NCBI GenBank assembly: GCA_026770705.1
Contig: JANJGN010000026.1
Coordinates: 29,822,001 to 29,886,000, forward strand
Source of the DNA: Isurus oxyrinchus
Taxonomy: Eukaryota
Direction of reading: 5' to 3'
Length of the DNA: 64,000 nucleotides
Below the pieces are notes generated by a model. That model was not told where the DNA came from. It searched no databases and saw only the letters and a program-made list of their open reading frames with translations. A program made the translations under genes and the position numbers. Shown here one piece after another: positions 12,035 through 56,390 of the stretch (within the stretch, counting starts at the first letter, position 1; each line of letters begins with the position of its first letter).

Positions 12035-13543
12035 GAAAACAAAGAAAACTGCGGATGCTGGAAATCCAAAACAAAAACAGAATTACCTGGAAAAACTCAG
12101 CAGGTCTGGTAGCATCAGCGGAGAAGAAAAGAGTTGACGTTTCGAGTCCTCATGACCCTTCGACAGAACTTGATTTCGAGTCCAAGAAAGAGTTGAAATA
12201 TAAGCTGGTTTAAGGTGCGTGTGTGGGGGGGCGGAGAGAGAGAGAGAGACAGAGGTGCTTGTGTAGACAAACAAGCAGTGATAGAAGCAGATCATCAAAA
12301 GATGTCAGTGACAATGGTGCAAAAGAACACATAGGTGTTAAAGTTAAAGTTGGTGATATTATCTAAACGAATGTGCTAATTAAGAATAGATGGTAGGGCA
12401 CTCAAGGTACAGCTCTAGTGGGGGTGGGGGGAGCATAAAAGATTTTAAAATATTTAAAAATAATGGAAATAGGTGGGAAAAGAAAAATCTATAAAATTTA
12501 TAGGGAAAAAAAAGGGGAAAAAAGGGGGAAACAGAAAGGGGGTGGGGATGGGGGAGGGAGCTCACGACCTAAAGTTATTGAATTCAATATTCAGACCGGA
12601 AGGCTGTAAGGTGCCTAGTTGGAAGATGAGGTGTTGTTCCTCCAGTTTGCGTTGGGCTTCACTGGAACAATGCAGTAAGCCAAGGACAGACATGTGGGCA
12701 AGAGAGCAGGGTGGAGTGTTAAAATGGCAAGCGACAGGGAGGTTTGGGTCAGTCTTGCGGACAGACCGCAGGTGTTCTGCAAAGCGGTCGCCCAGTTTAC
12801 GTTTGGTCTCTCCAATGTAGAGGAGACCACATTGGGAGCAACGAATGCAGTAGACTAAGTTGGGGGAAATGCAAGTGAAATGCTGCTTCACTTGAAAGGA
12901 ATGTTTGGGCCCTTGGACGGTGAGGAGAGAGGAAGTGAAGGGGCAGGTGTTACATCTTTTGCATGGGCATGGGGTGGTGCCATAGGAGGGGGTTGAGGAG
13001 TAGGGGGTGATGGAGGAGTGGACCAGGGTGTCCCGGAGGGAGCGATCCCTACGGAATGCCGATAAGGGGGGTGAAGGGAAGATGTGTTTGGTGGTGGCAT
13101 CATGCTGGAGTTGGCGGAAATGGCGGAGGATGATCCTTTGAATGCGGAGGCTGGTGGGGTGATAAGTGAGGACAAGGGGGACCCTATCATGTTTCTGGGA
13201 GGGAGGAGAAGGCGTGAGGGCGGATGCGCGGGAGATGGGCCGGACACGGTTGAGGGCCCTGTCAACGACCGTGGGTGGAAAACCTCGGTTAAGGAAGAAG
13301 GAGGACATGTCAGGGGAACCGTTTTTGAAGGTAGCATCATTGGAACAGATGCGACGAAGGCGAAGGAACTGGGAGAATGGGATGGAGTCCTTACAGGAAG
13401 CGGGGTGTGAGGAGCTGTAGTCGAGGTAGCTGTGGGAGTCGGTGGGTTTGTAGTGGATATTGGTGGACAGTCTATCACCAGAGATTGAGACAGAGAGGTC
13501 AAGGAAGGGAAGGGAAGTGTCAGAGATGGACCACGTGAAAATG
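12035..13543 (-). mobile_element. Penelope-like element, 5'-truncated (RT thumb + GIY-YIG endonuclease)
   Basis: ORF 12562..13308 has NLVYCIRCSQCGLLYIGETKRKLGDRFAEH (GIY-YIG); 12-bp TSD ATCTCAGTTTTT at 12023-12034 and 13544-13555. Confidence 0.9.
12131..12170 (-). ncRNA. Minimal hammerhead-ribozyme-like motif in Penelope terminal repeat
   Basis: Minus strand AGTT-CTGTCGA-AGGGTC-ATGAG-GACTC-GAAAC-GTC-AACT: helix I, variant CUGANGA core, helix II, GAAAC-GUC. Confidence 0.55.
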
Positions 13544-13589
13544 ATCTCAGTTTTTCATTACCTAGCACAAAGGAAGATGACTGAGATTG

Positions 13590-17960: not shown

Positions 17961-19647
17961 TCTCGGTGTTTTTCCACTCACACTGAAGTTCAAAATCTTT
18001 ACCCACTGACAGAACAGACAAACATTTCTCCTTCCACATTCAAAGTCTGAGGATATTCAGGTCCTGGTGAATCGAGTGACTCCTTCAGAAGATGTTTGGA
18101 TTGAGTTTCACATCTGCAAACCCTTCCCTTCTAATACCCTGGAAAACGAGTTTATAAAAGTCATCATTGTCAGTCCAGGATAGAAATTCAGAACAGACAG
18201 TTCTAGTTTTAATGGAATATTGTTTTCTCTCTTGTTCCCCCAAAGCTGTAAATCCACGTCCCACACACTCTCCCTCCTCCCTGGGCTGAAATCCAAACCC
18301 ATCTCGCCATCTCCAGCATTTCTTTCCTCCACTTCCAGTTTTCTCCCTCCCACTCCTCTGCCTGGGTTCAGTTCTCCAGCTCCTATCTGTAGACTGACAA
18401 TAAAATCAATGAATAAGTCATTTTTCCTCCTGGTCACAGACACCCTCAAGCCACGTCCACTCTCTGTTCCATCATCGAGGTGGCCATACATGCATCTGCT
18501 CCCAGATGAACCAAGATAACGGCCGTTAATCTGTGCCTGCTTCTGGAAAGAAGACCCAAAGCTGCAAACGTGGGACCTGCAGGTTCTTATTGGGGGTTTG
18601 GCGTCTCCAGCAAATGCTTCTGAATTCTCCCTGCCCACCTCCTAGGGTTTCCTTCATCGAGATCAGAGTCCTCACTGGTTTCAACTGCTGAACACCCTCT
18701 CCCTGGCAGGACTGTATTGAGTTTCCATACATACGAACATACGAATTAGGAGCAACATAGGCCATTCGGCCCCTCAAGCCTGCTCCACCATTTGTTATTA
18801 TCATTATCAGTAAGATACATGGTGAGCTCATGGTGTCTGGTATCGAGCTCGACAAAAAAAATCACAGATTATTCTAAATATATTGGTCCCTCTAGACTGA
18901 TATTAAAGTGAAACCCAGAACAAAATTGGGCTCCAGTTATTGAGACAGAGAGGGGCGTTTCCCAAGGAGAGGATTCACTTGTCTGTCCGAGCTGATGACA
19001 GCTACGCACCAATGAATGAGAGCTGCAGATAGTTTCTTTCTCTGGTTGGTTCCCTCTCCCTCGCTCTGACCTTTTTAGCTTGTCTGTCCCTTTGCCTCGA
19101 TGACTCTCTGCTGGGTCAATCTCTCCTTGCAGTAAACATTCCCTCCGCAGTAAAACACATGGATATAAATACGGTAAATTGGGAGTGAAGACAGAATAGG
19201 ACAAATCGGCGAGCAGGCAATTACGCGTTAACACCTTCAGGCGTCGTGAATGTCAGTCTGGAGTTTTCACATTGATATCGGACATAAGTCAATCAATAAA
19301 TGTCGTTTATGTTTGTCTCATTCAGTAGGACCATAGTGATCAGACACCATAGCGACGGCGCGGTAAATATAAACTGCACGGGCATGGAAAGGAAATATGA
19401 GGCAAATTTATTGGACCAAATGATGGATCAAATAAAATCCACATGTGTTACCACGGCTGAGGGTGGCTCCTTTGTGCTGCATTTGTATGTTTCACAGACA
19501 TGTCATGAGTGTGTGAGTGGACATTGAGGATTATGTCCAAAGCCCTTTGTTGCACCTGATTAAGTATGGATGCGTCAGGCAATGCTGGCCCTGCAGGCCC
19601 ATTTGTGTTGAGCTAACTGAAGGTTCGTTGGATTAAAGTCTTCCGGG

Positions 19648-19747
19648 TGCCCCTGCCTCCTTGGTGTAGTACTGGGTCACCGTTCAGCCCCTCGGCCCCG
19701 CTGGTTTTACAGGTCAGGGTCAGGGACTGTCTGGGTAGCGCCGTCTC
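19648..19747 (-). pseudogene. IgH-type V relic (FR1 plus scrambled downstream pieces)
   Basis: Minus strand reads ETALPRQSLTLTCKTSG, resembling shark IgM VH FR1 (ExxxPGGSLRLTCKTSG), followed by EGL and a shifted QYY; no RSS or acceptor. Confidence 0.5.
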
Positions 19748-20162
19748 TCAAACACCACCCAATACAAACACATCAAAACAAACACATGCACCGACCTCCC
19801 AGTTCATTACTGTGGGGAAAGGAATGCGACAGCGCAACTGGCAGAAAGAAAAGCTTCACTCCCCCACCCCTGTATCCCAGAGTATTATGGGAGGGGCTTT
19901 CACATCCGGATCACAAACCAAATGAAGAGGCAGAAAATTGCAGCCTCCTTTTATAAACCTGTCTCTTATTCACACAACGCTTAGACAGCGACTCTGGAAC
20001 GGTGCGGCCCATCAATGATCACAGCGGAACTGCCCTGTGAAAAGCAAATCAGCACCCCTTAAATATTTCAGTCCAGCTCTGAGGTCCGGTCTCCCAGTGC
20101 AGTCCAGGGCTGCAGTCTCCAGCTCCCCGTCATATAAATCCCCATCTCCAGGCAGCAGAACG

Positions 20163-20205
20163 ATGGGAATCCTCCTTGTTTTCACCTTGTGTATCTGTTT
20201 ACACC
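20163..20205 (+). CDS. Leader exon of NAR-TCR V
   Basis: MGILLVFTLCICLH plus phase-1 donor C|GTGAGT; TATAAAT at 20133-20139; splices in frame to the acceptor TTCCAG ending at 20351. Confidence 0.85.
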
Positions 20206-20351
20206 GTGAGTATCGATCAAACAAACCAACATTGTATGGATTAATATAAAGCTGCCCGAGTCCATTCCAATTACAGACACTGTCTGGGGTTTTAACCCCT
20301 TCTGTGGTTTGGCTCTGATGGTCCATTAAACTCTCTTTGTTTAATTTCCAG

Positions 20352-20650
20352 GCTCTTTCAGTCAGTCAGTGACACAGACCCCGGCAACGGTGATCAGGAA
20401 GGAGTGTCAGTCTCTCACCATCACCTGTGTTTTCTATGGCGGTTTTTTCGCTCGTCCTTTGACGGGCGCGGATTTCTTCAGACAAACCCAGACCGGGACA
20501 GAGCGGAAGCGGATCTCCAAAGGAGGGAGATTTGTTGTGTCGGTGAATGAAGCAGAAAAGACATTTCTGCTGGAAATTCGGGATGTGAGAGTTGAAGACA
20601 CCGCCACCTATTACTGTAAAGCTCAGTATAGGTCCAACATGCGGTACAGT
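20352..20650 (+). CDS. NAR-TCR (IgNAR-like) V exon, apparently with a germline-fused D
   Basis: RSFSQSVTQTPATVIRKECQSLTITCVFYGGFFARPLTGADFFRQTQTGTERKRISKGGRFVVSVNEAEKTFLLEIRDVRVEDTATYYCKAQYRSNMRYS; vNAR-type short FR2/CDR2 (ISKGGR), extra FR1 Cys, open frame. Confidence 0.9.
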
Positions 20651-20678
20651 CACAGTGGGGTAGACCTGAGCAAATACC
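20651..20678 (+). other. 12-bp-spacer recombination signal sequence
   Basis: CACAGTG-gggtagacctga(12)-GCAAATACC. Confidence 0.85.
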
Positions 20679-20993
20679 TTTGTACGATCAGATTATAAAT
20701 TCTCCGGACCCGGATAGTGAAATGTTGGGTTGATGTTATTATCACTGTAATCTGGTTACATTTATTTGTAATTTCCACCATTCAGTTATCTTCCTTTGAT
20801 GTTTTTCTAGGTTTATATGAAGCGAGCATCTCGTTACCGGGACCATTTACTCAGAGCTCAGGGCCTCACAAAGAACAGTTTGAACCGACAGAGACTTGGA
20901 AACATTGAATATTGTTTATTTATTTAAGTCCGCTAAATAATTGGGTGGTTTCTACTGTCTGATGATGATTTCCCAGCAGGTTGAGGTGTCGCT

Positions 20994-21032
20994 GGTTGTT
21001 GTACCGAGGAGACTGAGAGCGGTGTCATTGTG
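20994..21032 (+). other. 23-bp-spacer RSS 5' of J
   Basis: GGTTGTTGT-accgaggagactgagagcggtgt(23)-CATTGTG. Confidence 0.85.
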
Positions 21033-21085
21033 GTGAAACTATGATTATGTGGATGGATCCGGGACGGTGGTGACTGTCACAGCCG
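21033..21085 (+). CDS. NAR-TCR J segment
   Basis: NYDYVDGSGTVVTVTA (IgNAR-type DGxGT instead of F/WGxG) ending in phase-1 donor G|GTAAGT. Confidence 0.88.
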
Positions 21086-22109
21086 GTAAGTAACTCCAAA
21101 CCCCGCCGGGTTGCAGCCTGTCCCGGGAAATATTCACCGTCAGATTATTATTGATATCACTGGAGTTTGGGTGGGATGTGGGAGTTGACGGAATCTGGAC
21201 CATTATTGGTTTTACAGGCACTTCGAGGATAACATTAACGTCACGGATCTCACAATCTGAATCGCTTTTAGTGAGCACAGATTGTCGGCGCTCCGGACTC
21301 CACTCCCGATGTTAACTGTGACCGAGGGAGCTCTGTCTGTCCCTAAGAGCCCGGGAGCGGGGTCGCAGAGCTCTCTCCTGGGCAGCAGATTGCAGTCCGA
21401 GCCGCGCAATGTGAATGAGGTAACGGGTGAATAAACTCAACATAACTGTGGCCAGTTTGGATACCTGCAGCGGCATAGCTGACCCAGGAGAAAAAGGGGA
21501 GAGTACCACAAGGGACTTCAGATACAAGATGTGGATCCAGATGGAATTTTATTATTGAGCAATCAGTGATTGAAATTAGTGACATTGCCCCCTGCAAGAT
21601 ATCTTAAATCAAGTCAGGTATTTAAAGCTTCCGATTGTTAACACCGGAATGACAATTGTTCTCTATTAGTTTCACTCTTCGAAAAGAACACTGCTTTCAA
21701 TTGCCATCATAAACCAATCACTCTCATCCTTTTCTGCCCTCAGACCGAAATGTGGAAGTTTGGAATTGCAGGTACTTCTCTATATTGAATGTAGATGTTT
21801 GAGAAATGGGATTGCTGTAATTTATCTGTATCCCTGATTACTGTGAATTAAAACAGCACAGCACAGTGAGACAGTGAGGATGATGCATTAGTCTCATAAA
21901 GGAGAACAGGGACATAAGGAAACATTTATAAACTGGGGGAATGTTCATTTAGAAGCAGCAAGAAATAATTCATCGAAAGGGGAAGGATTGGAGGATCTCT
22001 GGCCCATTCAAAGTACAATCCGAGCCCAGGGTAGTTGGTGAGGTGCATGGAGGGAAGGACTGAAATCGACTCCAGTTTGGAATGTTGTTTAAAGTTATGA
22101 TCTCTTTGC

Positions 22110-22620
22110 TTAAGGAAGGATCTACATGCCTTGGAGGGAGTGCAACAAAGGTTAATCAGACTGATTTCTGGGTTAAAGGGATTGTCCTATAAGAGGAGAT
22201 TGAGTAGTCTGGGCCTATGTTCCCTAGAGTCTAGAGGAATGAAATGTAATCTCATTGGAACATCTAACATCCAGGACAGGATAGATTCCCAGTGGGTATT
22301 TCTCCAGGCTGAGAAGTCTCTAACTAGGGCCCACAGTTTCAGAATAAGGATTCGGCCATGAGAAATGAGAAGAAGAGAAATTTCATCAGTGAAACCATTG
22401 TTGTGAATCTATGACGTTCTCTACCTTAGAGAGCTATGGATGCTCAGTGATTGAGTGTATTAAAGGAAGTGTTCAATAGATTTCGGGATACTAAAAGAAT
22501 CAAGTGATATGGGGACATTCCAGCAAAGCTATTTTGAGCTAGGAGATGAGTCAGGATATTATTGAATGGCGGAAAAGGTTTGAAAGGTAATATGGCCGCT
22601 CCTGCTTCTGTTTGTTCTAT
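22110..22620 (+). mobile_element. CR1-type LINE 3' fragment
   Basis: ORF 22131..22361 EGVQQRLIRLISGLKGLSY..TRAHSFRIR. Confidence 0.7.
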
Positions 22621-22986
22621 TAACTGCTTTGATCTGTTACGCTTCTGAGAAAAGAAATCAGGAACAATCCATATCTCTGTGGAGAGAATGAACAGGCCAG
22701 GTCTCTTGTCTCTGGAGAACAGAGAAAAAGGAGAATTCATAGAAATCATTAAGTAATGAATGGGTTCATTTGGGTGGTTGTGGAATAGCTGTTTATTTGT
22801 GGGTGAAGCTGGAGCCATTAACATAAGATAGTCACTAACAGAACAAATAAATACGTGAAGAAGGAGTGTAAAAACAGGCAGATTAGAATGTGGAATTTGC
22901 TGCCAAAGGGAGTGGTTGGAGCAAATAGTATTGATATATTTATGGGAAGACTTGAAAGTACAGTAGGGAGAACGGAACAGACCGAC

Positions 22987-25900
22987 ATAGCCACACCTGC
23001 TGAGTTTTTCCAGGTATTTTTGTTTTTGTTTTGGATTTCCAGCATCAGCAGTTTTTTGCTTTTATCTTAGTGTTTAATTGACTGGCACTTCTCTTCAAGG
23101 AATGCCTACCTTGAAGAAGTTTTGCTCTTCTCTCCGTCAGGATTTTTGTATCTCTCTTTTGTCTGTTCACCTTCATTGCTTTCCATTTCTCTCCTGTTCG
23201 AAAAGTTGTTTACTAAAACCCGCTTTCACAGCCATATCTCCTTTCTCAGTGACTGTCTCCATCTCCGACTTACCCCACGTGGATTTGAACTGAAATTCCA
23301 TCCCTCATGTTTCGAACCCACCCAGGATTACAGGTATCTCCGGGACATACAATGCTCCTCGGACTGCTGTTCCCGTCACATTCTGAGATCCACACTCAGT
23401 GCCATGTGCCGCCATATGAACATACTCAACCACTCATTCCAGCAGCACCGCTGCCCCCTTTCTCAAAGCTGCGCGTGCCCTCAGTTTCATTTTATTCTTC
23501 ATCTCATCTGATGCCTCAACAAGAAACTTTGTCTCTTTCTTTCAGGTGCAAGGGAACGCAAGCTCCAACAACTCATCGACACCAACACCCATCCAGGACC
23601 CTCCACCCCTGCCTGTCCCACTGTCCCCATCCCGTCTTCCAATCCCACCCCCGGCCGTGTATTCACCATACCACCTGACCTTCCCCTCTCCGATGCTGAG
23701 TGGTCAGTGCTCAGCAAAGGACTTAGTTTCATACTCTTATGCCCTCATCTCAATGAATTTTGGGCTTGGCACGTTGCTGAACTCTTCTTCCACCGCCTTT
23801 GTCTCCGTGCCCACTTCTTTGGGCAGGAGTCCTCTCCCCATGCAACAGATCCCTTTACCCACCTCCAATATTCTCTCTCCACCTGGACCCCTCTCTCTGG
23901 ATTCTTACCTTCTCTTGATCTTTTCATTGAGAACTGTCGGCGCGACATTAGTCATCTCAATTTCTCTGCTCCACTCACCCATTCTAACCTCTCTGAACTT
24001 GCTGCACTCCATTCTCTCAGGTCCAACCCTGACATTGTGATCAAACCCGCTGACAAGGGTGGTGCTGTTGTTGTCTGTCGCACTGACCTCTACCTCGCGG
24101 AGGCTGAGCATCAACTCGCAGACACTTCCTCCTACCTCTCCCTGGACCATGACCGCACAATTGAACATCACGCCATTGTTTCCAGGACTGTCATTGAGCT
24201 CAGCTCCTCTGGAGGTCTTCCTTCCAAAGCTTCCAACCTGATAGCCTCCCAACCTCGGACCCCTTCTACCTACTAGCCAAAATCCACAAACAGGACTGTC
24301 CCGGCAGACTGATCGTGTCAGCTTGTTCCTGCCCCATGGAACTAATTTCTTGCTATCTTGACGCCATTCTCTCTCCCCTTGTCCAGTCCCTTCCCATCTA
24401 CATCCGTGATTCCTCTGACACCCTACATTATATCAACAATTTCCTGTTCCCTGGCCGCAAACGCCTCCTCTTCACCATGGACGTCCAATCCCTCTACACC
24501 TCCATCCCCCACCGGGATGGTCTGATGGCTCTCTGCTTCTTCCTCAAACAGAGGCCCGAACAATCCCCATCCATCACTACTCTCCTCCGTCTGGCTGAAC
24601 TTCTTATCACACAGAACAATTTCTCCTTAAACTCCTCTCACTTCCTCTAAATAAAAGGTGTGGCTATGGGTACCCGCATGGGCCCCAGCTATGTCTGTTT
24701 CTTTATGGGGTATGTAGAACATTCCTTGTTCCAGTCCTACTCCGGCCCCCTTCCACAACTCTTTCTCTGGTACATCGATGATTACTTCGGTGCTGCTTCA
24801 TGCTCTCATCTGGACCTGGAAAAATTTATTAATTTTGCTTCCAATTTCCACCCCTCCATCATTTTCATATGGTCCATCTCTGACACTTCCCTTCCCTTCC
24901 TTGACCTCTCTGTCTCAATTTCTGGTGATAGACTGTCCACCAATATCCATTAGAAGCCTTCGACTCCCACAGATACCTCGACTACAGCTCCTGCCACCCG
25001 TTTCCTGTAAGGACTCCATTCCATTTTCTCAGTTTCTTTTGCCTCCGTCGCATCTGTTCTGATGATGCCACTTTCAAAAACAGTTCCTCTGACATGTCCT
25101 CCTTCTTCCTTTACTGAGGTTTTCCACCCACGGTCATTGACAGGGCCCTCAACTGTGTCCAGCCCATCTCCCGCGCATCCACCCTCACACCTTCTTCTCC
25201 CTCCCAGAAAAATGATAGGGTCCCCTTTGTCCTCACTTATCACCCCACCAGCCTCCGCATTCAAAGGTTCATCCTCTGCCATTTCTGCCAATTCCAGTGT
25301 GATGCCACCACCAAACACATCTTCCCTTCACCCGCCCCTGGCAGCATTACATAGGGATTGTTCCCTCCGTGACACCCTGGTCCACTCCTCCATCACCCAC
25401 TACACCTCAACCCCTCCCACGGCATCTTGCCATGCAACCACAGAAGATGCAACACCTGCACCTTTACTTCCCCTCTCCTCACTGTCCAAGGGCCCAAGCA
25501 CTCATTTGAAGTGAAGCATCATTTCACTTGTACTTCCCTCAACTTAGTCTACTGCATTAGTTGCTCCCAATGCAGTTTCCTCTACATTGGAGAGACCAAA
25601 CGCAGACTAGGTGACTGCTTTGCAGAACACCTTCAGTCTGTCCGCAAGCATTACCCAGACCTTCCTGTCGCTTGCATTTCAACACTCCACCCTTCTCTCA
25701 TGCCCACATGTCCGTCCTTGGCTTGCTGCATTGTTCCAGTGAAGCTCAACGCAAACTGGAGGAACAGCACGCCATCTTCCGACTAGGCACTTTACAGTCT
25801 TCTGGACTGAATATTGAGTTCAACAATTTTAGATCATGAACTCTCTCCTCCATCCCCACCGCCTTTCCGATTTCCCCCCCCCACCCCTTTTTGTTTTTTC

Positions 25901-26331
25901 CAATAATTTATTTAGATTTTTCTTTTCCCACCTATTTCCATTATTTTTAAATGTCTTTCCATCCATTGTTTTATCTCTACCTTTTAGCCTTTTTTGATTC
26001 CTTCACTCCACCCCACCCCAACTAGGGCTATCTCTCTTGCTCATCCTGCTTTCTACCCTTAATTAGCACATTCCTTTAGATAATATCACCACCTTCAACA
26101 CCTCTTTGTCCTTTTGTCTGTGACATTTTTTGGTTATCTCCACCTGTCGCTGGCCCTCTATCCATCTCTTCTTGTTCCACCCACCCCCTTAAACCAGCTT
26201 ATATTTCACCCCTTTTCTATTTTTCCTTAGTTCTGTTAAAGAGTCATGTGGACTCGAAACGTTAACTGTGTTCCTCTCCACAGATGCTGGCAGACCTGCT
26301 GAGTTTTTCCAGATATTTTTATTTTTGTTTT
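22987..26331 (+). mobile_element. Near full-length Penelope-like element, inactivated, in the J-to-supporting-V intron
   Basis: Broken ORF with IVIKPADKGGAVV, FTMDVQSLYTSIP, GVAMGTRMGPSY, YIDDYFG and YIGETKRR (RT + GIY-YIG); short terminal direct repeat ACCTGCTGAGTTTTTCCAG; 8-bp TSD AGACCGAC at 22979-22986 and 26332-26339. Confidence 0.9.
26229..26267 (+). ncRNA. Degenerate minimal hammerhead-like motif of Penelope 3' repeat
   Basis: AGTT-CTGTTAA-AGAGTC-ATGTG-GACTC-GAAAC-GTT-AACT; core diverged from CUGANGA. Confidence 0.4.
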
Positions 26332-26452
26332 AGACCGACCTGGGGAGTTGACTGGAAATTGTCAATTAGATTTCGGGTGCATGGGGAATGGTCAGCAGTA
26401 AATACACAGGGATAAATCATTTGAGCCGAATGGATTATTCCTCTTTAGGCAG

Positions 26453-28025
26453 ATACTGTGTAAAGTAAAACGTAGGGAAAATTCCAACTAGACAGCCCGT
26501 GAATCACTAAATGGGCGGAAAAAATTGCAATTGTCCGAGAGGCGGAAGAGGCAGTTCCCAGTAAGTAACAGTAAAACCACAGCGGAAACTGAACAGACTG
26601 AAACCACCCGACAACTGAAAGAGTTTGGGACAAGTTCCCACGATTGCAACGTTCTCATGCAAGAAGCACAAACGGTACAAAGGAAATGTAGAAATAAAAT
26701 GAAACTAAATGTAAATATATAAAAATAAATGGAAAGGAGAAAAATTAAATCTATTGATAGAAGAACATATTTTTTTTTGCAAAGAAATGCTGATTGAAAG
26801 ACATTCAATCAATATTTCACCTTACGATTACTTTTACAGAACCTTGGTCTCTTAAATTTAAGCTGCTACAATTTGAGTATTAGTAATAATGACAGCAATA
26901 TGTATCCGTGTTCCCACATTGCAGACGATGACTCGGGTGATCGGCCTCTTAGAATTCATGTTGCACGCAGATCACTGTCACTACCTGCTGAAGGGACGTC
27001 TCATTGTGTTAAAAGTGTTTTAAAAACAAGTTGTATTTGTGGTAGCTCTGAGGCAAAACATGTTTACGTCATGCGCTGTTCTGCGCTGTTTCAGGCCTGC
27101 ACCATTCAGAATCAGAAGGAATTTCGACAATATTTCATGTGCAAAACTTGTGTATGGAGCAGAAAGGTATTTTCAGCTCTTTATTTTCTTTTCCGCTGAA
27201 TCAGATGAGGTTTATGTCTTCGATTGCACATTGGGGATCAGCGGCAGCTCATCGGGTGCTACTCAAATGTCGATTCAACACTCGACGACGTTTGAGTGAC
27301 GTACGTTCGGCCAAAACCGTGTGAGGTCCTGCGCTCCTGAAGTCGTTCGTTGGCCCGTTTATGCCCATTGGGTACCTACCTGGATTATTCAGTAGCCGCA
27401 TGTCTTTCTCCCCGTCAGTTTCCAGGAACATTTGACCGCGGCCGTTTCACAAGACTTATTTCAACAGAACGTGTTGTTCGATCCGGGACAGTTTATACAC
27501 AATGACAGGATTTCACCAAGGCAATGAGTGTGAGCTTTAAATCAAGTCCCAAACACAGTGTCCATCCCCATTTCACTGTCCCTCTGAGTGTGGCTTCGTG
27601 TTTTATCACTGGAACTGGAAACTGAATTATCCAGACCTGAAAATCAAACATTGCTTGCTAGAATCATCATTTCACTATTTCTCATTTGGACCGAATAGAG
27701 TTTTCATATTCTTCAGATCCTGTACAATGTAAAACTTAGAGAAAGCTCCGCCCAGAGAACCCGGGACAGAATCAGTCAATGGACGGAAAGAACCGAAATT
27801 GTCAGAGGGCCGGCAGAGGCAGTTCCCAGTAAGTAACAGTAAAACCACTGCGGAACTGAACAGACTGAAACCAACCAACAACTGAGAGACTTTGGGACAA
27901 GTTCCCACGATTGTGAGAAGCGCGATCAGCACAAAGTAAACGTAAAAATGAAGGGGAACTGAATGTAAAAATTTCAAGTTAAATGGAAATTGAATGAATT
28001 GGACCCTGTTGATGGATGAAAATAG
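26453..28025 (+). repeat. Dispersed direct duplication of ~300 bp (26453-~26760 and 27717-~28025), each with an exon-like segment
   Basis: Both share GAGGCAGTTCCCA|GTAAGTAACAGTAAAACCAC..TTTGGGACAAGTTCCCACGATTG. Confidence 0.75.
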
Positions 28026-28656
28026 GGAAATGGAACGGACGGCAAATTGAAACTCCAGGACAGTATTAAACTGCAGCAAATATTTGACCTTTGACCATTG
28101 ATGTTCACTATCAGTTTGGCCCAATCGGATCATTAAGCTCATCGCTTTTTGATAGATCTTGCTCGATCAATTATTTTTGGAAACTGATTAGGTCATTGAT
28201 AATAAAACATTCCTTCGGGTTTGTCTCTCACCAAGGAAAATACAAACAGAAATTTAACATACAATCACAGAAACATCCAACACGGAAGGATGACATTCGG
28301 GCACTTGCGTATGGGCTGCCCCTTTAAAAGTGCAATCCAATTGTCCCCGCTAGCCAGGCATTTTGCCCGTAGTCCTACATTTATCCCTGTTCCAGCACAG
28401 ATCCATCATCCTTTTGAAAGTTACTATTGAATATGCTCCTACCACACATTTTCACCGCGCATTCCAGATCGGAAGAATTTGCTCTGTAAAATAAATGATC
28501 ATCCTCCTGTATCATCTTGACCACATTTAATAACCGTGAATACGGTTCGAACAGGCACCAAGTGAAGGAAATTACCGCAAAATCAAGAGCTATTAACAAA
28601 TTCCCCCGGGTAAACAGTAGTTAAGCCAACAAATAATGTTTAATTTTACCCTACAG

Positions 28657-28962
28657 ATTCCAGTTTTCTGGTATCCCGGAGTCCGCATCTCCAAACCGGT
28701 GCTGCCGATGACACTGTTACTTTAAGCTGTGAATATTCAGGGTTCTGTCAGTACACAGTACACTGGTACCGTCAGTCCCCAGGACAGGCTCCGGAATACC
28801 TGCTTGAGAGACACACTTCAGGAGAGGAGAACAAAGAAAACGCTGCCGTGGGTAAAATTTTTGCTTCTATCGATTCTGCCGAGAAAAGCAGCCGGTTAAA
28901 GATCTCCAAACCACAACTGAGCGACTCCGCTGTGTATTACTGTGCACTGAGTCGACGCACAG
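28657..28962 (+). CDS. Leaderless supporting TCR-delta V exon of the NAR-TCR cassette
   Basis: Acceptor CTACAG ending at 28656, in frame with the J donor; DSSFLVSRSPHLQTGAADDTVTLSCEYSGFCQYTVHWYRQSPGQAPEYLLERHTSGEENKENAAVGKIFASIDSAEKSSRLKISKPQLSDSAVYYCALSRRT; canonical C/W/C plus an extra CDR1 Cys; no ATG, so absent from the ORF track. Confidence 0.92.
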
Positions 28963-29001
28963 CACAGTGATACAGAACACGGAGACATCTGTACAAATAC
29001 G
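28963..29001 (+). other. 23-bp-spacer RSS of supporting V
   Basis: CACAGTG-atacagaacacggagacatctgt(23)-ACAAATACG. Confidence 0.9.
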
Positions 29002-31035: not shown

Positions 31036-32989
31036 ACTGAACCGGAGGATTTTATAGAATGAGCTGCGGGCTCTCTCTTTGTCTGTCTGTTTCTCTATAT
31101 TTCTATATCTATCTCTTTCTCCGTCTGCGCCTCTCACGCTTTGTCAATCACGCGTTCTCCTTCTCCATCTAAATTTCTATCTTTGCCTGTGTCTCCCTCC
31201 GCTTTCTCTCGTAATTTATCTCTCCCCCTCTCTCTCTCTCTCTCTCGCTCTCTCTTGCTCTCTCTCTCGCACACACACTTTCTGCTCTATGCGTCAATCT
31301 TTGTCTCCAACGTCTGTATCTTTCTCAGTGTTTCGGCATATTTTCCTCCCTTTCTCTCCCTCTGTCTCTCACTTTCTCTCTTTTTTCTACTTTCCTTGGC
31401 TTTCGCTTTCCCTATAACAGGCTCTACTTTCATTGTTTCCAATCGAAAGTTACTGGTGCTGTCAGAGATAAAGATTCAGAGTTCACAAACTGAACTCCCT
31501 CCACTCAGGAAATATGGCAACCCAGTGATAGTTTCCGTTCGTGGCCTGTATCAGTTTGTATCACTGTGAATATTCAGCACACAGTAATAAATCCCACTGG
31601 CACTCAGCTCCACATCTGTCAGGGGTAAGCTGAAAAAACGATTAGATACTCGGGGTATTGAAGAGATTCGGCCTCCCACACGCCCTACTTCCTGCCCTCC
31701 CTCAGAATTCATTTTGATTAAAAGCACTGGCTCCTGCCCCGTTCTTTCTGCTTGAACAGATCATATCGTCGGCTGTCTGTGGAGTATGAACAAGGCAACA
31801 CCATATGTCCTTCCTCTATACATGATACTGATGATGCAGGTTGCTTAATTATATTTGAGTAGCACAGACTTTCGAATAGTCAATGAACAGAAGACAAATG
31901 CATGTTTAGGTCCTGGAGACATCAACTCGTTCCTTTCCTTCATCGCACCATCATAGGATGAGGCCATTCAGCACATCGTGGCTGTGTAGCCCCTTTGGTA
32001 GAGGCACCGAATTGTTACCACTCCACTGTTTGCTCCCCTTTGCCTTGCAAAAGTTTCCAATTATGTTTTTGACATTTAATATTGAAACTGCTTCCACCAA
32101 CCTATCCGGCAGTGAACTCCACAATACAACAACTTGGATTGCAAATAAATGGCTGCTCAGGTTGCCTCCGATTCTTTTGTAAACTAATCTAAATCCAAGT
32201 TCTCTGATTACGCAGCTTTCCGCCACTGGATGCAACTTCCCTTATTTATTCAAGTAAAACAGTTCATAATTGTCAATATCGCCGTCAAATTTCCTCCCAA
32301 TCTTTTATGTTGTACAGAGAACAGCCGCAGATTCTCCAGTCTCTCCACAAAGCTAAAGCCCCTCATCAGTTGTGCCTTCCAAGTAAATCACTCCCGCACC
32401 TTCTCCAAGACCCTCAAATCATTAATCATGTATGGTTCACATATTTGTACACAACAATCTAACTGAGACCTTACCAGCTTTGTAGAAACGTTTAGATTAG
32501 CATCCTTTTCCTCTTGATAAAACCAAGAATTTAAAATGTTATTTACAGGATTCTCAGCTGTCACTGCTAACTTCAAATGTTTGAGCACATTGCACCGTAT
32601 CCATCTCTCTGTTCCTACAGTGCTGATCAAATTGCGTCATTTAGTTTTTTTCAGATATCCTCATTATTCTCACCAAAATGCATCACTTCACAAATGCCAT
32701 CTGGTATGTTCCTGGCAAATGGAAATGTCCACGTCCTCCTGAAGTTTGTTACCATTTGCCTCATTGTTTATTACAAACCGAGACCTCTGTCATCTGCAAA
32801 GTCTAAACCAACTATACCAGCGGGTAAGTTATTACATCAATAATTTTACTGGATTATGGTTTACAAATAATTATTATTAATAAATCACTGGCCCAAGTAT
32901 CGAAGTTTAAGGAAGGCAGTTGTAAACTTCATCCAAATTAAAATGAATAATCAACTAGGTCTATCCATCGATCCAGCCCTCATTCACTT

Positions 32990-33400
32990 TCGCCTCTCTC
33001 CATCCACCCGCACATCCAGCTGTCCGTTGATGCATCAGACCGTCCTTCCGACCATCTGCCCATTCATCCATCCATCCATCCGTCCATACTCCTCTCCGTC
33101 CATCCATCCGTTTACCCAATCAACCATCGCTCCTTCCTGTGGTCCATCCATCCATCTGCCCAGCCATCCATGCATCCATCCGCCCATATGNNNNNNNNNN
33201 NNNNNNNNNNNNNNNNNNNNNNNNNNNNNNNNNNNNNNNNNNNNNNNNNNNNNNNNNNNNNNNNNNNNNNNNNNNNNNNNNNNNNNNNNNNNNNNNNNNN
33301 NNNNNNNNNNNNNNNNNNNNNNNNNNNCTTCTGTCCATCCTTCCAACCATTTGTCCATCCGACAACCTATCTATCCGACAGCCAATCCACCCATCTATCC
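32990..33400. repeat. Degenerate (CCAT)n simple repeat spanning an assembly gap
   Basis: ccatccatcc runs; N run at 33191-33327 (other gaps: 33500-33633, 42002-42150, 51013-51149). Confidence 0.8.
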
Positions 33401-34811: not shown

Positions 34812-34891
34812 GGTTATTCTACAAGCGTTCAAGGAGATTCACTTACTGTTGGTCCCAGCTCCCCACAGTGATACAAGTCAGTACAAAAGCT
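34812..34891 (-). other. D segment GGGAGCTGGGACC (34863-34851) with 5' 12-RSS and defective 3' 23-RSS
   Basis: Plus strand CACAGTG(34864)-12-ACAAAAGCT; on the other side the minus strand reads AACAGTA-23-AGAATAACC; 12-D-23 geometry as in TCR-delta/beta D or shark IgH D1. Confidence 0.75.
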
Positions 34892-39512: not shown

Positions 39513-39670
39513 TTTTTTTGTACAGACCTGAGTCTGATCCCTCTCACTGCGTAGCTGTGTGTAATAATAAGTCGTGTGGTCTTTCACAGTCAAACTCCTG
39601 ATTTCCAAAGTGAAGAAATGTTTTGGCAAGTCCCTGGAAGCTGTAAGTCGCTCCCTCGCCTCCTGGTGCA
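39513..39670 (-). pseudogene. IgH-type V pseudogene 3' fragment with degenerate 23-RSS
   Basis: ERLTASRDLPKHFFTLEIRSLTVKDHTTYYYTQL resembles shark VH FR3 ([32 protein letters not shown]); RSS CGCAGTG-23-ACAAAAAAA; second Cys lost. Confidence 0.75.
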
Positions 39671-40470: not shown

Positions 40471-40807
40471 TTTTCTTGCTACAGGAGCTGGTATGTGTGG
40501 AGCACTGTGTCAGACGAGGCGCAATAGTAGATGGCCCCGTCCTGAAACTCAGTGCTGATGAGCTGCAAGGCCAACAGGTTCTGATCCCGGTACAGTGACC
40601 CTCTGAACTTCTCCTCGAGGCCGTCCCTGTAATGATCTCCGGCGCTGTAAACCCATTCAGGTGTCTGCACCTCTCTCTGCCGGTACCAGTGAAATGTGTG
40701 TGGACTCGTATTGCCGAGCAGTTTGCAGAGCAGGACAGCTCTTCCGTCTTCCCTTGGCTACTCCCTGGCTGGCGTCTGCTTCAGCCAGATTTGGGATTGG
40801 GAGCATC
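40471..40807 (-). pseudogene. Antigen-receptor V segment (family unresolved) with one in-frame stop and a 23-RSS
   Basis: GCSQSQIWLKQTPARE*PREDGRAVLLCKLLGNTSPHTFHWYRQREVQTPEWVYSAGDHYRDGLEEKFRGSLYRDQNLLALQLISTEFQDGAIYYCASS; acceptor CAG at 40810-40808; CACAGTG(40509-40503)-23-GCAAGAAAA. Confidence 0.85.
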
Positions 40808-42275: not shown

Positions 42276-42629
42276 AGTTAATGTGTTGGCAGTTGCCCTC
42301 AGGGCTCCAGTGTGTGTCTTTGCGCAGGTAAGACGCAGAAATATTGTCTGTGATCCTCAGCTGTCACCTGTGAAACCATTAAGTTGACAACTCTGTAGGT
42401 TCGGATCAGAGACGAGGTGAAGCGGTGTGTGGTGAATGCAGTGCTGTCGCTGAAGCCATTGGTTCAGCGGGTAAGAATGTACTGGGAGTCCCAGGGCAAG
42501 GCATCCCGGTACCAGAATAGGCAGGCCCTCTCCATCTCTTTTAGGGGCAGCTCATTGTCACCATACCTCCCTGCTGAACGGTTACGTCTGCCTCCGGCTG
42601 CTCAGAGAGTGAGGATTCAGCGACACTGC
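42276..42629 (-). pseudogene. TCR alpha/delta-type V pseudogene with 23-RSS
   Basis: GSVAESSLSEQPEADVTVQQGGMVTMSCP* / frameshift / LFWYRDALPWDSQYILTR*TNGFSDSTAFTTHRFTSSLIRTYRVVNLMVSQVTAEDHRQYFCVL; CACACTG(42314-42308)-23-ACATTAACT. Confidence 0.8.
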
Positions 42630-44012
42630 CTGAGGGACAGGGAAGAAAGCATTTAGTTGAGGCTCAGATACTGTGAATGGTAAAATAGAGGTAGCCATGG
42701 GGCACTGGTCATGTCAGCAAATGAGTAACTCGAGCAGTCCAAGTTCATGCTGCGGGGACGTGGGTATGAAATCCAATTTATTTCAAATTAAATTAAATTC
42801 ATCAACCTTGAATATAAAGCTAAGGGTGACCCATGATAACGATCAGCAACTATTATTGAAATAAAAACACCATCTGGTTCACTCAGGTCCTTTGTGGGAG
42901 TGAAGGAAATCTACCATATTTGCCCAGTCTGGCCTAATATGTGTCTCCAGGCTCACAGCAATGTTGTTGACTCTTCGCGCCCCTCCCAAATGATCTAGCA
43001 AGCCATTCAGGACAAAAGGGGTAATTAGAGATGGGCAATAAATGCTGCTCTTCACACTCACACTCACATTGCAGGAAAGGATCAGGGCTAAATGTCAACA
43101 GACAATCGCCCACTGAATCAATGGGCCGTTGACATTTGTTTGTCATTGTTTATTGGCGGTGGGTAAGGCTGGCATTTATTATTGGTTCCCAGTTCCTCCT
43201 CTGGCCAGCGGTGCCCTTCAGCTGCTGCAGCCCCGTGTGGCCCAGGCACCTCCCTCCCCCAACGTGCAAGCACGGAGGGAGTTCCAGGATTCAGATCCGG
43301 CGATAGCATGGGGGACACATGCCCCAACCTGGATGATGTGCATCTCTGGGGTGGTGGAATTGGAGATGGTGGCGCTCCCATGCATTCTCTGTCCTTACCC
43401 TCCCAGGTGATGGAGGTCAGACCTAGGAGAGGCTGCCGAAGGAGCCTTGGCGGATTGTCAGATTTTATTGTGGGAACAGGAAACACTGCAGCCTCCGGTG
43501 AGCGCACTGGTTGTTTAACATCTGCGCCTCAGCCAGAAATAGGAGGAGTGGGAGTTGACCATAGGGTCACTAGAGCCTCCTCTGTCATTGATCCAGGTCA
43601 TGGCTAATCTGACTGAATCTCATCACCACTTTCCTCCCTGCTCCCGGGACTCACAATTTCCATATCAGTCACCAATCAGTCTAACTCCCCTTTGGTTATA
43701 TTCAATGACTCCCTCTGCACAACTTTCGGGTGTAGAGGACTCTGAAGATGCACCCAGATCAAATCAAAATGCTGCAGATGCTGGAAACAGAAAAGGCTGC
43801 AGTCACTAGGCAGGTGTGGCAGCATCTGTGGAGAGAGAGAGAGAGAGAGAAACAGATTTCACTTTTTGGGATCTTTTACAAATCCAATAATTAAATCAAC
43901 TCCACCTCTATGTAATATTAGTGTTTCTGTTTCCAGTCAATCCAATAATCCAAAGGGAAGTGTAGAAGGATTCCTTGGAAGTTAATCGGTGAGAATCTGA
44001 AGTGTAAATCAC

Positions 44013-44947: not shown

Positions 44948-45104
44948 AGTTACTGCTCGAGGCTGTCACTCGGTTCCCGTCACTGTGAGACTCAGAATAA
45001 GTAATAACCATCGCCGGTATAGGTGCAGGTTAGAGTGACATCTTCTCCCTCTGTCTGTATGAGTGAGGATTCCAGCTGAGTAACAGAATCTCCATCGCTC
45101 AGAC
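44948..45104 (-). pseudogene. TCR alpha/delta V pseudogene with internal FR2-FR3 deletion and retained RSS
   Basis: Acceptor TTCCAG, then GLSDGDSVTQLESSLIQTEGEDVTLTCTYTGDGYYLF*, then directly CACAGTG(44987-44981) with a 23/24-bp spacer and GCAGTAACT. Confidence 0.8.
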
Positions 45105-50901: not shown

Positions 50902-50940
50902 CACAGTGTCACAGAGCATGCAGTGAGATGTACAAAAACC
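50902..50940 (+). other. Orphan perfect-consensus 23-RSS with no V exon
   Basis: CACAGTG-tcacagagcatgcagtgagatgt(23)-ACAAAAACC; spacer and 3' flank (ATGGTGGGATT) resemble those of the supporting-V RSS at 28963. Confidence 0.9.
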
Positions 50941-52729
50941 TGAACATGGTGGGATTACAGACACAAAGTGATACAAGGCAGGGAAAGAGTTCAGATTCTT
51001 GTCCATTTTTGGNNNNNNNNNNNNNNNNNNNNNNNNNNNNNNNNNNNNNNNNNNNNNNNNNNNNNNNNNNNNNNNNNNNNNNNNNNNNNNNNNNNNNNNN
51101 NNNNNNNNNNNNNNNNNNNNNNNNNNNNNNNNNNNNNNNNNNNNNNNNNCCCACCCCTTGGAGGTCAATCATCTCAGCTCCAGGGCATCACTGCAGGAGT
51201 TCCTCAGGGTAGTGCCCGAGGCCCAACCATCTTCAGCTGCTTCTTCAATGACCTCCCTTCCATAATAACATCAGAAGTGGGGATGTTTGCTGATGCTTGC
51301 ACAATGTTCAGCAGCATTCACTACTCCTCAGATACTGAAGCAGTCCATGTCCAAATGCAGTAAGGCCTAGACAACATCCAGGCTTGGCTGACCAATGCTG
51401 ATGACTTGTCCTCCAGAAGTAACATTTGCGCAACACAAGTGCCAGGCAATGACCATGTCCAACAAGAAAGAATCTAATCATCGCCCTTTGGCATTCAATA
51501 TCATTACCATCGCTGAATCCCTCAATATCAACATGCTGGGGGGTGGTGGTGGGGTTACCATTCACCAGAAACTGAACTGAACAAATCATATAAACATGTG
51601 TGGCTAACAGAGCAATTCAGAGGCCTGAGTAACTCATCTGCCTCCCAAAACCTGTTCACAATTTACAAGGCATAAGCCAGGGGTGTTCTCCACTTGCCTG
51701 GATGAGTGCAGCTCCAACAGCATTAAACATGTTTGACATTATGCAGGACCATGCAGCCTGCTCGATTGACATCCCATCCATAAACATTAACTCACTCGAT
51801 GACCGGCGCACAGTAACAGCAGTGTGTACCATCTTCAAGGTGCACTGCAGGAATTCACCAAGATTCCTGAGACAGCACCTCCCAAATGCACGACCACCAT
51901 CATCTAGAAGGACAAGGGCAGCAGATAGATGGGAACGCCACCACCTGGAATTTCGTCTCCAAGTCACTCACCAGCCTGACTTGGAAATATATTTCCATTC
52001 CTTCAATGTCTCTGGATCAAGATCCTGGAACTCCTTCCCTAACAGCACTGTCGGTGTACCTGCACCAGATGGACTGCAGCTGTTCAAGAAGGCAGCTCAC
52101 CATCATCTTCTCAATTGAAAAGCAGGTTATTGCTAAGCAAGTGCCGCTTGAGAACACTATTGATGACCCCTTCCATTACTTTACTGAGGGTCGAGAGTAG
52201 ACTGATGGGGCGGTAATTGGCTGGATTGGATTATTCCTACCTAGGAATTTTCCACATTGCTGGGTAGATGCCAGTGTTGTAGCTGTACTGGAACAGCTTG
52301 GCTAGGGGCAGGGGAAGTTCTCGAGTACAGGTCTTCAGTACTGTTGCTGAATATGTAAGGGCCCATAGCCTTTCCATTATCCAGTGCCTTCAGCCGTTTT
52401 CTGATATCACGTGGAGTGAATCGGATTGGCTGAAGACTGGCAATTAGGGATGGGGAATAAGTACTCGTCGAGCTAATGAAGCCCTGATTCCATGAATGAA
52501 TTAAAAAAAAATAGCATTAAGCGCACTTGGTACTTAATTAATTTGCATGAGTTATTTGATGAGGCAGTGGAGAGGGTTGACGAGGTGAATGCAGTTCATC
52601 TGCCATACATGGACACCGCACATAGACTTTGGTAAGGGGAGGGAGTAGGGTTGAAAGAGCGAGCGGAGATTCGGGGAAAGGCCGGGTTAGAGAGTTGGAG
52701 CTAATTGGGAAGCTCTTTCAGAGAATCAA

Positions 52730-53910
52730 TGCAAGGCACAATGGGGAGCGCCACAGGGATCAGTGCCGGGGCCACACTTATTTACAATAGATATTAATGA
52801 CTTGGATGAGGGAAGCGAATGCAATCTCACCCAGTTTGATGATGACACAAAGATAGGTGGGAAGGCAAGCGGTGAGCATGACACAAGGAGTCTACAGAGT
52901 GATATAGACAGGTTAAATGAGTGGGCCAAAAATGCGGCTGATGGAAAAATGTGGGAAAATGTGTGGTTATGGCTGGAAGAATAGAGGAGCTGAAAATTAT
53001 TTAAATGGAGAAAGAATGCAGGAAGCTGCAGCACAGAGGGATCAGGGTCGTCCTCGTGCATGAATCCCATAAAGCTAACGTACAAGTTCAGTAGGTAATA
53101 AGGAAGGCAAATGGAAGGTAGCCTTTATTTCAAAGGGAGTGGAGTATAAAAATAGGGAAGTCTTGCTGAAACTTAACAAGGCACTAGTTAGACCACACCT
53201 AAAATAATGTGAACAGCTTTGATCCGCTTATTTAAGGAAAGATATCCTGGCATTCGAGGCAGTCCAGAGAAGGTTCACTAGGTTGATTCCGGGGAAGGGC
53301 AATAGCAATTCCCGCAGAACATTTAAGAAATATTTGGATGTGCACTGCCATGGCATACAAGGCTGCGGGCCTAATGCTGGACAACGGGATTAGAATAGTT
53401 AGGTACTTGTTTGACCAGTGCAGATTTGATGAGCCAGAGGGCCTTTTTCTGTGCTGGAGACCTCTATGACTCTGTGGAGGGACTTTCTTATGAGGAGAGG
53501 TTAATCATTAGAGTTTAGAAGAATGAGAGGCGACCTTATTGAAACATATAAGATTCTTCCGGGGCTTGACAGCGTAGATGGTGAGAAGTTGTTTCCCTTT
53601 GTGGGAGAGTCTAGGACCATAGGGCATAATCTCAGAGTAAGGGGTCGCCCACTTAAAACAGAGATGATGAGGAATTTCTTCCCTGAGGGGAGTCAATCTG
53701 TGGAATATTTTACCGCAGTGGGCGATAGAAGTTGATTCGTTAAGTGTATTCAAGGCTGAAATAGGCAGAATTTTAGTCAGTAAGGGAATCAAGGGTTATG
53801 GGAAAAAGACAGGAAAGTGGAGTTGAGGATTGTCAGATCAGCCACGATGTCACTGAATGGCGGAGCAGACTCGATGGGCCGAAAGGCCCACGTCTGCTCC
53901 TATCTTTTAT
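52730..53910 (+). mobile_element. Nested CR1-type LINE RT and 3' fragments
   Basis: PQGSVPGPHLFTIDINDLDEG..FDDDTKIGG and MRGDLIETYKIL motifs. Confidence 0.8.
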
Positions 53911-54589: not shown

Positions 54590-55095
54590 GTCAAACATGT
54601 ACCTAACTATTCTAATCCTATTTTCCAGCACTAGGCCCGAAGGCTTGTATGCCGTGGCATCGCACGTGCACAGCCAAATACTTTTTAAATGTTATAAGGG
54701 TTTCTGCCTCTACCACCCTTTCAGGAAGTGAGTTCCAGATTCCCAGCACCCTCTGGGTGAAAGAATTCTTCCTCACATCCCCTCTAAGCCTCCTGCCCCT
54801 TACGTTAAATCTATGCTCCCCCTACACCTCCCCGGTTATTGTTCATTCCACCAAGGGAAAAGTTCCTTCTTGTCTCGCCTATCTATGCCCCTCATAATTT
54901 TATACACCTCAATCATGTCCCTCAATCTCCTCTGCTCCAGGGAAAATAACCCCAGTCTATCCAATCTCTCTTCGTAACTAAAACTGTCCAGCCCAGGCAA
55001 CATCCTGGTAAATCTCTTCTGCACTGTCTCTAGTGCAATCACACCCTTTCTACAATGCGGTTTCCAGAATGGAATACTCTAGCTGTGGCCTAACC
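54590..55095 (-). mobile_element. CR1-type LINE 3' fragment
   Basis: ORF 54836..55042 LETVQKRFTRMLPGL..FSLEQRRLR. Confidence 0.75.
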
Positions 55096-55124
55096 ACCGG
55101 ACACATGGGTTCAAATCCAATTTC

Positions 55125-56390
55125 AATTGGTTTTTTGAAGGGAAGGTCGTGTCTCATTAACTTGATCGAGTTTTTCAAGGAAGTGACAAAGATGATCGCC
55201 GATGGAAGGGCAGTTGATGTTATCTACATGGATTTCAATAAGGCCTTTGACAAGGTCCCTCATGGCAGACTGGTACAGAAGGTAAAGTCGCACGGGATCA
55301 GAGGTGAGCTGGCAAGATGGATACATAATTGGCTTAGTCATAGAAGACAGAGGGTAGCAGTGGAAGGGTGCTTTTCTGAATGGAGAGCTGTGACTAGTGG
55401 CGTTCCACAGGGATCAGTGCTGGGACCTTTGTTGTTTATAGCATAGTTAAATGATTTGGAGGAAAATGTAACTGGGCTAATTAGTAAGTTTGCAGACGAC
55501 ACTAAGGTTGGAGGAGTTGCAGAGAGTGAAGAGGACTGTCAAAGGATACAACGGGATATAGATCGGTTGGAGACTTGGGTGGAGAAATGGCAGATGGAGT
55601 TTAATCTGGACAATTGCGAGGTAATGCATTTTGGAAGGTCTAATACAGGTTGGAATCATACAGTAAATGGCAGAACCCTTAAGTGCATCGACGGGCAGAG
55701 GGACCTGGGTGTACAGGTCCACAGGTCACTGAAAGTGGCAACGCAGGTGGATAAAGTAGTCAGGAAGGCATATGGCATGCTTGCCTTCATCCACGGGGTG
55801 TTGAGTATAAAAGCTGGGAAGCCATGCTGCAGCTGTATAGAACCTTGGTTAGGCCACACTTGGCATATTTCGTGCAATTCTGGTCGCCACATTACCAGAA
55901 GCATATGGAGGCATTGGAGAGGGTGCAGAGGAGGTTAACCAGGATGTTGCCTGGTCTGGAGGTTATTAGATATGAGGAGGGGTTGGAGAAACTCGGATTG
56001 TTCTCACTAGAGCGACGGAGATTGATAGAAGTTTACAAAATTATGAATGGCATGGACAGTGTCGATAGTCAGAAGCTTTTTCCCAGGGTGGAAAAGTCAA
56101 TTACATAGATTTAAGATGAGAGGAGAAAACTATAGAGGAGATGTGCGGGGCAAGTTTTTTACACAGAGGGTAGTGAGTGTCTGGAGTTCGCTGCCAGAGG
56201 AGGTGGTGGAAGCAGGTAAGATAGCGGTGTTTAAGAGGCAGCTTGACAAATACATGAATAGGATGGGAATAGAGGGATATGGACCCCGGAAGTGCAAAAT
56301 GTTTTAGTTTGATATGTAATATGATCGGCACAGGCTTGGAGGGGCGAAGGGCCTGTTCCTGTGCTGTATCTTTCTTTGTTCTTTGTAATT
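55125..56390 (+). mobile_element. CR1-type LINE RT-to-3' end, broken frame
   Basis: GFLKGRSCLINL, VDVIYMDFNKAFDKVPH, SGVPQGSVLGP, KFADDTKVGG and C-terminal motifs, with tail. Confidence 0.9.

Follow-up and report, generated by a model that had tools for sequence, protein, structure and literature searches.

A NAR-TCR cassette of Isurus oxyrinchus with a first V that runs into a 12-spacer recombination signal, and a likely V-D joint in the germline

How does a NAR-TCR gene rearrange if its N-terminal V segment has no free D to join? The question is raised by a 64,000-nt stretch of DNA from the shark Isurus oxyrinchus (contig JANJGN010000026.1; the whole stretch is termed the window, and positions are counted from its first letter). 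NAR-TCR is the doubly rearranging T-cell receptor (TCR) delta of cartilaginous fish (PMC3457774, PMC5931798, PMC6795676, PMC12227049). The window carries a cassette of this kind, in which the first V runs into a recombination signal sequence (RSS) with a 12-nt spacer, without a free D, and this arrangement would be the product of a V-D joint in the germline. The reading as a whole is considered likely. The cassette consists of the following parts.

20133..20138, plus strand: putative TATA box, 30 nt 5′ of the leader ATG, found by motif scan
20163..20205, plus strand: leader exon with ATG at 20163, 14 codons and 1 nt, phase-1 GT donor; joint 20205>20352 present in contigs of sequencing runs X19 and X20
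20352..20641, plus strand: NAR-TCR V, vNAR-like; likely germline V end, six codons past the CKA motif
20642..20650, plus strand: likely D remnant joined to V, 9 nt in frame, as judged from homologue V-end lengths, codon fit and contigs
20651..20678, plus strand: 12-RSS from the RSS scan, with a perfect heptamer and two nonamer mismatches; likely belonging to the 3′ side of the joined D
20994..21032, minus strand: 23-RSS of J from the RSS scan, one mismatch in the heptamer and one in the nonamer
21033..21085, plus strand: NAR-TCR J (..DGSGTVVTVTA), phase-1 GT donor, in-frame TGA at 21034-21036
21086..28656, plus strand: repeat-bearing intron of 7,571 nt, with 24858-25952 88% like 12452-13545; no leader or immunoglobulin (Ig) exon found in it
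28657..28962, plus strand: leaderless supporting V-delta with an extra cysteine in complementarity-determining region 1 (CDR1), open and in frame with J; loose ends of X19 and X20 contigs at 21085 and 21083 match its start
28963..29001, plus strand: 23-RSS of the supporting V, perfect heptamer at 28963, 23-nt spacer, nonamer with two mismatches

Identity of the cassette

There is hardly any doubt that the cassette is a real NAR-TCR, of a known kind. A search for longer proteins yielded 95 candidates, 56 of them homologous (59-90% identity); 55 are named shark proteins and one has no name, and the closest are from Cetorhinus. By motif, J continues directly into the supporting V in 53 of the 56 shark homologues. 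P0017 is a rearranged chain and runs through the second CDR3 and J into a constant (C) domain. The C part of P0009 is closest to human TCR-delta, which fills the top nine rows (E 1e-11 to 5e-11), with TCR-alpha at 1.7e-5 at best. A near-length homologue search with the supporting V retained three of four candidates. The tree places the NAR V among NAR-TCR-type proteins, with identities of up to 90%. The NAR V is nearest P0002, and the supporting V is nearest P0016 and P0060; a chimeric cassette was rejected, as in neither tree does the window row fall within a well-supported clade.

The first V has a short C′/C″ region, an extra Cys in framework region 1 (FR1), and Phe instead of Trp at the C-strand position. 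Its best single-domain PDB matches are shark vNAR entries (E 1e-16 to 1e-10), and in Pfam the two V exons score above the V-set cut-off of 26 bits (30.4 and 53.9 bits). The extra FR1 Cys is present in all 50 homologues where the motif was found and invariant in the 33 that were aligned, the supporting V has the extra CDR1 Cys in 51 of 53, and 45 of 56 have both by motif. The C-strand position holds Phe in 50 homologues and Tyr in one, with the motif unmatched in five. Because window and homologues share them, the Phe and both extra Cys are, on this comparison of sequences, family traits and not damage.

J, long intron and supporting V

The leader is separated from the V exon, which is open from 20352, by an intron of 146 nt. 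The J segment is more of a problem. The TGA occupies J bases 2-4 in frame, where homologues have Trp. When joints were simulated, loss of 0-1 nt from J left no in-frame product free of stops, and loss of 2-7 nt left 66-93% stop-free. Only joints in which J is trimmed by at least 2 nt could be productive.

The RSSs were scored against a consensus taken from general knowledge. A nonamer with at most two mismatches occurs at 0.2% of window positions, yet all three heptamers are followed by one at canonical spacing, and the set is therefore beyond chance.

Four of 24 listed sequencing runs were compared with positions 20100-21200, and what is said of contigs applies to the matches listed. X19 and X20 are RNA, a status guessed by the tool, and the X1 and X2 contigs are DNA; depth is a rough guide only. 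In contigs of X19 and X20 the leader is joined to V across GT..AG, V is joined to J with junction letters in between, and loose ends follow J. Compared with the beginning of the window's supporting V, these ends agree at 26 of 30 and 23 of 28 positions; compared with the start of the intron, they agree at only 8 and 10. In relatives, to judge from these contigs, J is spliced onto the supporting V. X19 also has joints of low depth at 20891>21048, 20920>21051 and 20757>20853.

A first-pass annotation had described a leader, a vNAR-like V, a J, a 7.6-kb intron and an in-frame leaderless V-delta with a 23-RSS, all with phase-1 splice sites, and had taken the whole for NAR-TCR. These claims hold up: the donor follows 20205, the acceptor precedes 20352, V is open, and all sites are phase 1; furthermore, homologues run J into the supporting V, contigs of relatives guessed to be RNA are spliced in this way, and in such chains the constant domain is TCR-delta-like. 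Two findings had been named that would speak against the assignment. One was a J spliced to IgNAR C exons. The loose ends match the supporting V instead, and Pfam detected no C1-set domain in 66 downstream plus-strand frames (at least 75 aa and at least two Cys). The other was a leader belonging to the V at 28.6 kb. No leader-like mini-exon (ATG, hydrophobic codons, GT) was present on the plus strand from 20163 to 44342, in a motif scan that could miss an atypical leader, and the frame of the supporting V is closed by a stop five codons upstream of its acceptor.

V end and the missing D

The V extends nine codons (27 nt) beyond CKA straight into a heptamer, and J follows 382 nt on. With spacers of 10-25 nt tried behind this heptamer, the nonamer fits best at 12 nt (two mismatches), and at 22/23 nt there are seven to eight mismatches. 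No RSS-flanked D was found in 20658-21025. A hidden D between V and J was rejected, there being just two heptamer-like words, with five to six nonamer mismatches.

Homologues end their V earlier. Eleven of the 56 models read through the V heptamer, and they do so 5-6 codons past CKA versus nine in the window. The first six codons past CKA in the window differ by two to three substitutions from the V end in P0002, P0019 and P0029, and by four and six from the other two tested. Because these six codons resemble homologue V ends, the 9 nt that follow in frame are taken as a probable D remnant. Back-translation of the 11 read-through models gives two or fewer nonamer mismatches at 12 nt in none of them. 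In P0047 and P0052 a nonamer is found at a 22-nt spacer (two and one mismatches at best); the other nine fit at no spacer, probably reflecting models that splice away soon after the heptamer. The spacer behind the V heptamer of homologues mismatches that of the window at 5-8 of 12 positions. Contigs add to this. An X1 loose end at 20629 has the V heptamer with a different spacer, an exact fit to P0032, and X2 record 20 matches from 20648 onward only; its 144 upstream letters are not matched up, and among the joints listed none leads back to V. Ordinary copies are likely to consist of V with a 22/23 signal, D, and J with a 23 signal, and the window copy of V joined to D, with the 12-RSS on the 3′ side of D retained. 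In nurse shark Ig heavy chain (IgH) clusters every joint deletes one interval of ~400 bp (PMC2435157), and the 382 nt are therefore consistent with one remaining rearrangement.

Is the joint inherited? Two other organisms supply three DNA contigs that run from V into the spacer with no large gap (X1 records 2 and 3, X2 record 19; depth 14-24), and for this reason the V-12-RSS layout is read as inherited in relatives. One ancestral joint common to the window and these relatives is possible. Partly joined VD-J clusters are known in shark Ig (PMC4279169, PMC5192425). Since germline joints carry little N addition (PMC2193156), the blunt, in-frame look of the joint fits a germline origin. A V and D joined in the germline (VD-J) would appear quite likely.

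The first-pass description of the cassette as complete and open needs to be amended. Both V exons are open, as claimed; J contains an in-frame stop, and a 12-RSS follows the NAR V. A free D, which a NAR-TCR may be expected to have between V and J, is missing. The first-pass annotation had overlooked the 12-RSS on V, the lack of a free D and the early stop in J.

Several points weigh against the proposed germline V-D joint in a NAR-TCR cassette. J is open only after trimming, and both plus-strand nonamers have two mismatches. The cassette differs at 7 of 85 conserved columns, five of them in the supporting V; the 33 rows that define these columns depart at one to eight, so that the cassette lies at the upper end in a comparison that favours those rows. 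D-delta, J-delta and C-delta were not found within the 64-kb window. The bridging contigs differ from the window junction at 5-7 listed positions from 20629 to 20645. No run of the cassette's own species is among the 24 listed, the best holding 23% of the words. Among the matches listed, no unjoined cassette is present whole as DNA, and a 22/23-RSS on the ordinary NAR-TCR V is based on two of 11 back-translated gene models and on contig ends.

Alternative explanations

The alternative that survives best, although it is unlikely, is that the cassette belongs to a NAR-TCR subfamily which natively has no D and in which there never was a joint: a V with a long 3′ end and a 12-RSS would join in one step to a J with a 23-RSS, as in a light chain. 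A V-12 facing a J-23 is already a valid pair, the same layout occurs in three contigs of relatives, and V ends of paralogues vary in length (in one, the heptamer comes directly after a TAT codon and 4 nt). Yet in homologues the V typically ends after 5-6 codons, the spacer differs, and the spacing, where it can be read, is 22 nt. In addition, paralogue contigs of high depth share the window spacer and the 380 nt downstream of it but do not extend into V. Depths of 46 and 14 over 20629-20645, versus 402 and 1127 at 20660, point in the same direction as far as depth can guide, as does X2 record 20.

Decay is given a slightly lower standing and is also unlikely. The anatomy would be the same, and the cassette would rarely or never be productive. 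Signs of decay are the TGA in place of the Trp of homologues, the seven changed conserved columns, an end branch of 0.13 in the NAR V tree versus a median of 0.06, and neighbouring V segments that are mostly broken. Set against these are an intact TATA box, leader, four splice sites, both V exons, the structural Cys and both extra Cys, as well as the large share of simulated in-frame joints that are stop-free once 2-7 nt of J are lost.

The joint could also be somatic, a partial rearrangement from lymphocyte DNA that entered the assembly. Partial somatic joints are known from B cells and thymocytes of sharks (PMC2435157), and the source tissue of the window could include lymphocytes. However, two other organisms have the same layout in their DNA contigs, at depth 14-24, and rare variants are lost from contigs; moreover, the joint has the blunt in-frame look of germline joints with little N addition (PMC2193156). 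A somatic origin is very improbable.

That V and J form an IgNAR cluster next to an unrelated TCR V at 28.6 kb is largely refuted: the first V is vNAR-like, and IgNAR and TCR-delta share one complex (PMC12227049), but an IgNAR cluster has three D segments, with C exons following J (PMC4622739), no RSS-flanked D was found in 20658-21025, no C1-set exon is among the 66 downstream frames, relatives splice J to the supporting V, and the V nests among NAR-TCR-type proteins with up to 90% identity.

Predicted rearrangement and chain structure

With a germline V-D joint, a single local 12/23 RAG joint of VD to J would suffice for the N-terminal domain. It would delete the 382 nt, and J would have to lose at least 2 nt for the 5′ stop to be removed. 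A separate second joint would bring the 23-RSS of the supporting V to a D-delta and a J-delta outside the window. Splicing would then yield leader-NARV-J-supportingV-D-J-Cdelta, as in relatives. In the resulting CDR3 the first half would be fixed, and one junction rather than two would vary. The cassette is probably usable, with some decay a possibility, as far as can be read from its sequence.

The N-terminal V would be unpaired, atop a gamma-delta receptor; this is the working model of the three-domain delta chain (PMC3457774, PMC6795676). A disulphide between the FR1 Cys of the NAR V and the CDR1 Cys of the supporting V would likely hold the N-terminal V in place, and support for this comes here from the co-conservation of the two residues. 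Criscitiello is said to have described, in 2006, paired extra Cys in NAR V FR1 and supporting V CDR1.

Other joined NAR-TCR sequences

The V-to-J junction 20625>21041 has the same letters in an X1 DNA contig (depth 50) and in an X20 contig guessed to be RNA, and these letters translate to the CDR3 of P0001. A P0001-type gene appears to be a fully germline-joined NAR-TCR V that is expressed. X2 has a further DNA joint, 20628>21052. The X19 joint 20628>21049 translates to a CDR3 found twice in P0003, another candidate for a fixed CDR3. An X20 loose end before 20349 has the J exon spliced straight onto a NAR V exon, as in the tandem-NAR-V gene models P0001 and P0003, and a four-domain chain NARV-NARV-Vdelta-C is possible. 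P0016 and P0018, from two shark families, have an identical CDR3 between CKA and DGSG, which suggests either that a fully joined cassette is conserved between them or that both models carry the same artefact.

Surroundings of the cassette

Other V-like sequences in the window are mostly on the minus strand. A TCR-type V at 40506-40800 has one in-frame stop in FR1, is 73% like part of P0039, and ends in YYCASS followed by a heptamer. A V of TCR alpha/delta type at 31530-31830 is frameshifted, with a 23-RSS at 31568. Broken V fragments are found at 42317-42640 (stops and a frameshift), 39546-39650 (an IgH-like 3′ remnant) and 45000-45100 (a 5′ half cut short before the heptamer). A short remnant resembling IgH V FR1 at 19643-19747 lies head to head with the cassette promoter, ~400 nt 5′ of the ATG (E 0.007, a weak match). 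All of these are on the minus strand. On the plus strand, a perfect 23-RSS at 50902-50940 is not preceded by a V, and a 12-RSS at 34864-34891 follows a short V-like remnant; the start of its spacer is like the 23-nt spacers of local V segments. An RSS-like word at 26578 was rejected, as its surroundings resemble, by eye, the stretch at 27830-27880. Retroelement reverse-transcriptase fragments are present at 52691-52981 and 55012-55935 (Pfam RVT_1, best E 1e-13), and there are four runs of N, at 33191, 33500, 42002 and 51013.

Relation to known systems

The cassette shares with NAR-TCR the vNAR-like N-terminal V with a J of its own, spliced to a leaderless supporting V-delta with its own RSS, and homologues end in C-delta. 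Seven great white genes are labelled NARTCR in Table S1 of PMC12227049. One of them, LOC121270138 (P0018), labelled NARTCRdV, spans 8,833 bp, compared with 8,839 bp here. The differences are that NAR-TCR is described with two independent V(D)J events, whereas the window V, with a 12-RSS and no free D, has one joint left, and that the window J is open only after trimming. The first-pass annotation had rated the novelty of the locus too highly, as NAR-TCR cassettes are already annotated in other shark genomes (Table S1 of PMC12227049).

The same table lists great white LOC121270133 as ‘NARTCR V(gj)V(gi)V’, and its description matches P0001. The label ‘gj’ may stand for germline-joined. If so, that gene resembles the window in having a germline-fixed joint inside a NAR-TCR cassette. 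It differs in having two tandem, fully joined NAR V exons; the window has a single V, likely joined to D only, for which RAG is needed to join VD to J. In the literature covered there is no mention of a half-joined VD-J NAR-TCR, a weak negative because the primary NAR-TCR papers lie outside that coverage. A fully joined NAR-TCR V has already been flagged in print, and the half-joined VD-J is therefore a modest variant.

Likeness to shark antibody genes is found in the VD-J IgH clusters and in nurse shark IgNAR type III, where D1 and D2 are fused. These share the proposed mechanism, in which RAG-like joining in germ cells leads to fewer junctions and a narrower CDR3 diversity (PMC4279169, PMC5192425, PMC4622739, PMC2193156). 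However, they are B-cell antibody clusters with C exons of their own, and the window holds a TCR-delta cassette that lacks C. Marsupials and monotremes have TCR-mu, likewise a TCR chain of three domains in which a supporting V carries an unpaired, antibody-like V, and germline joining occurs in the marsupial locus (PMC3457774). It is of independent origin, with VH-like domains, and the pre-joined part is the supporting V and not the N-terminal V.

A wider interpretation is tentative, and somewhat doubtful. NAR-TCR cassettes of sharks may be inherited in three forms: with V, D and J split, half-joined (VD-J) as in the window, or fully joined (VDJ), some of the last in tandem as NARV-NARV-Vdelta. 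RAG activity in germ cells would have reshaped the TCR locus and left gamma-delta T cells with fixed antibody-like domains that are semi-invariant, and the VD joint would be old and common to species. The ligands of NAR-TCR are unknown (PMC7615758). Fixed or semi-fixed CDR3s would be the easiest to express and test. The half-joined state predicts a family of NAR-TCR chains in which the first half of CDR3 is fixed, and through it partial germline joining, known from shark antibody clusters, would extend to a T-cell receptor locus.

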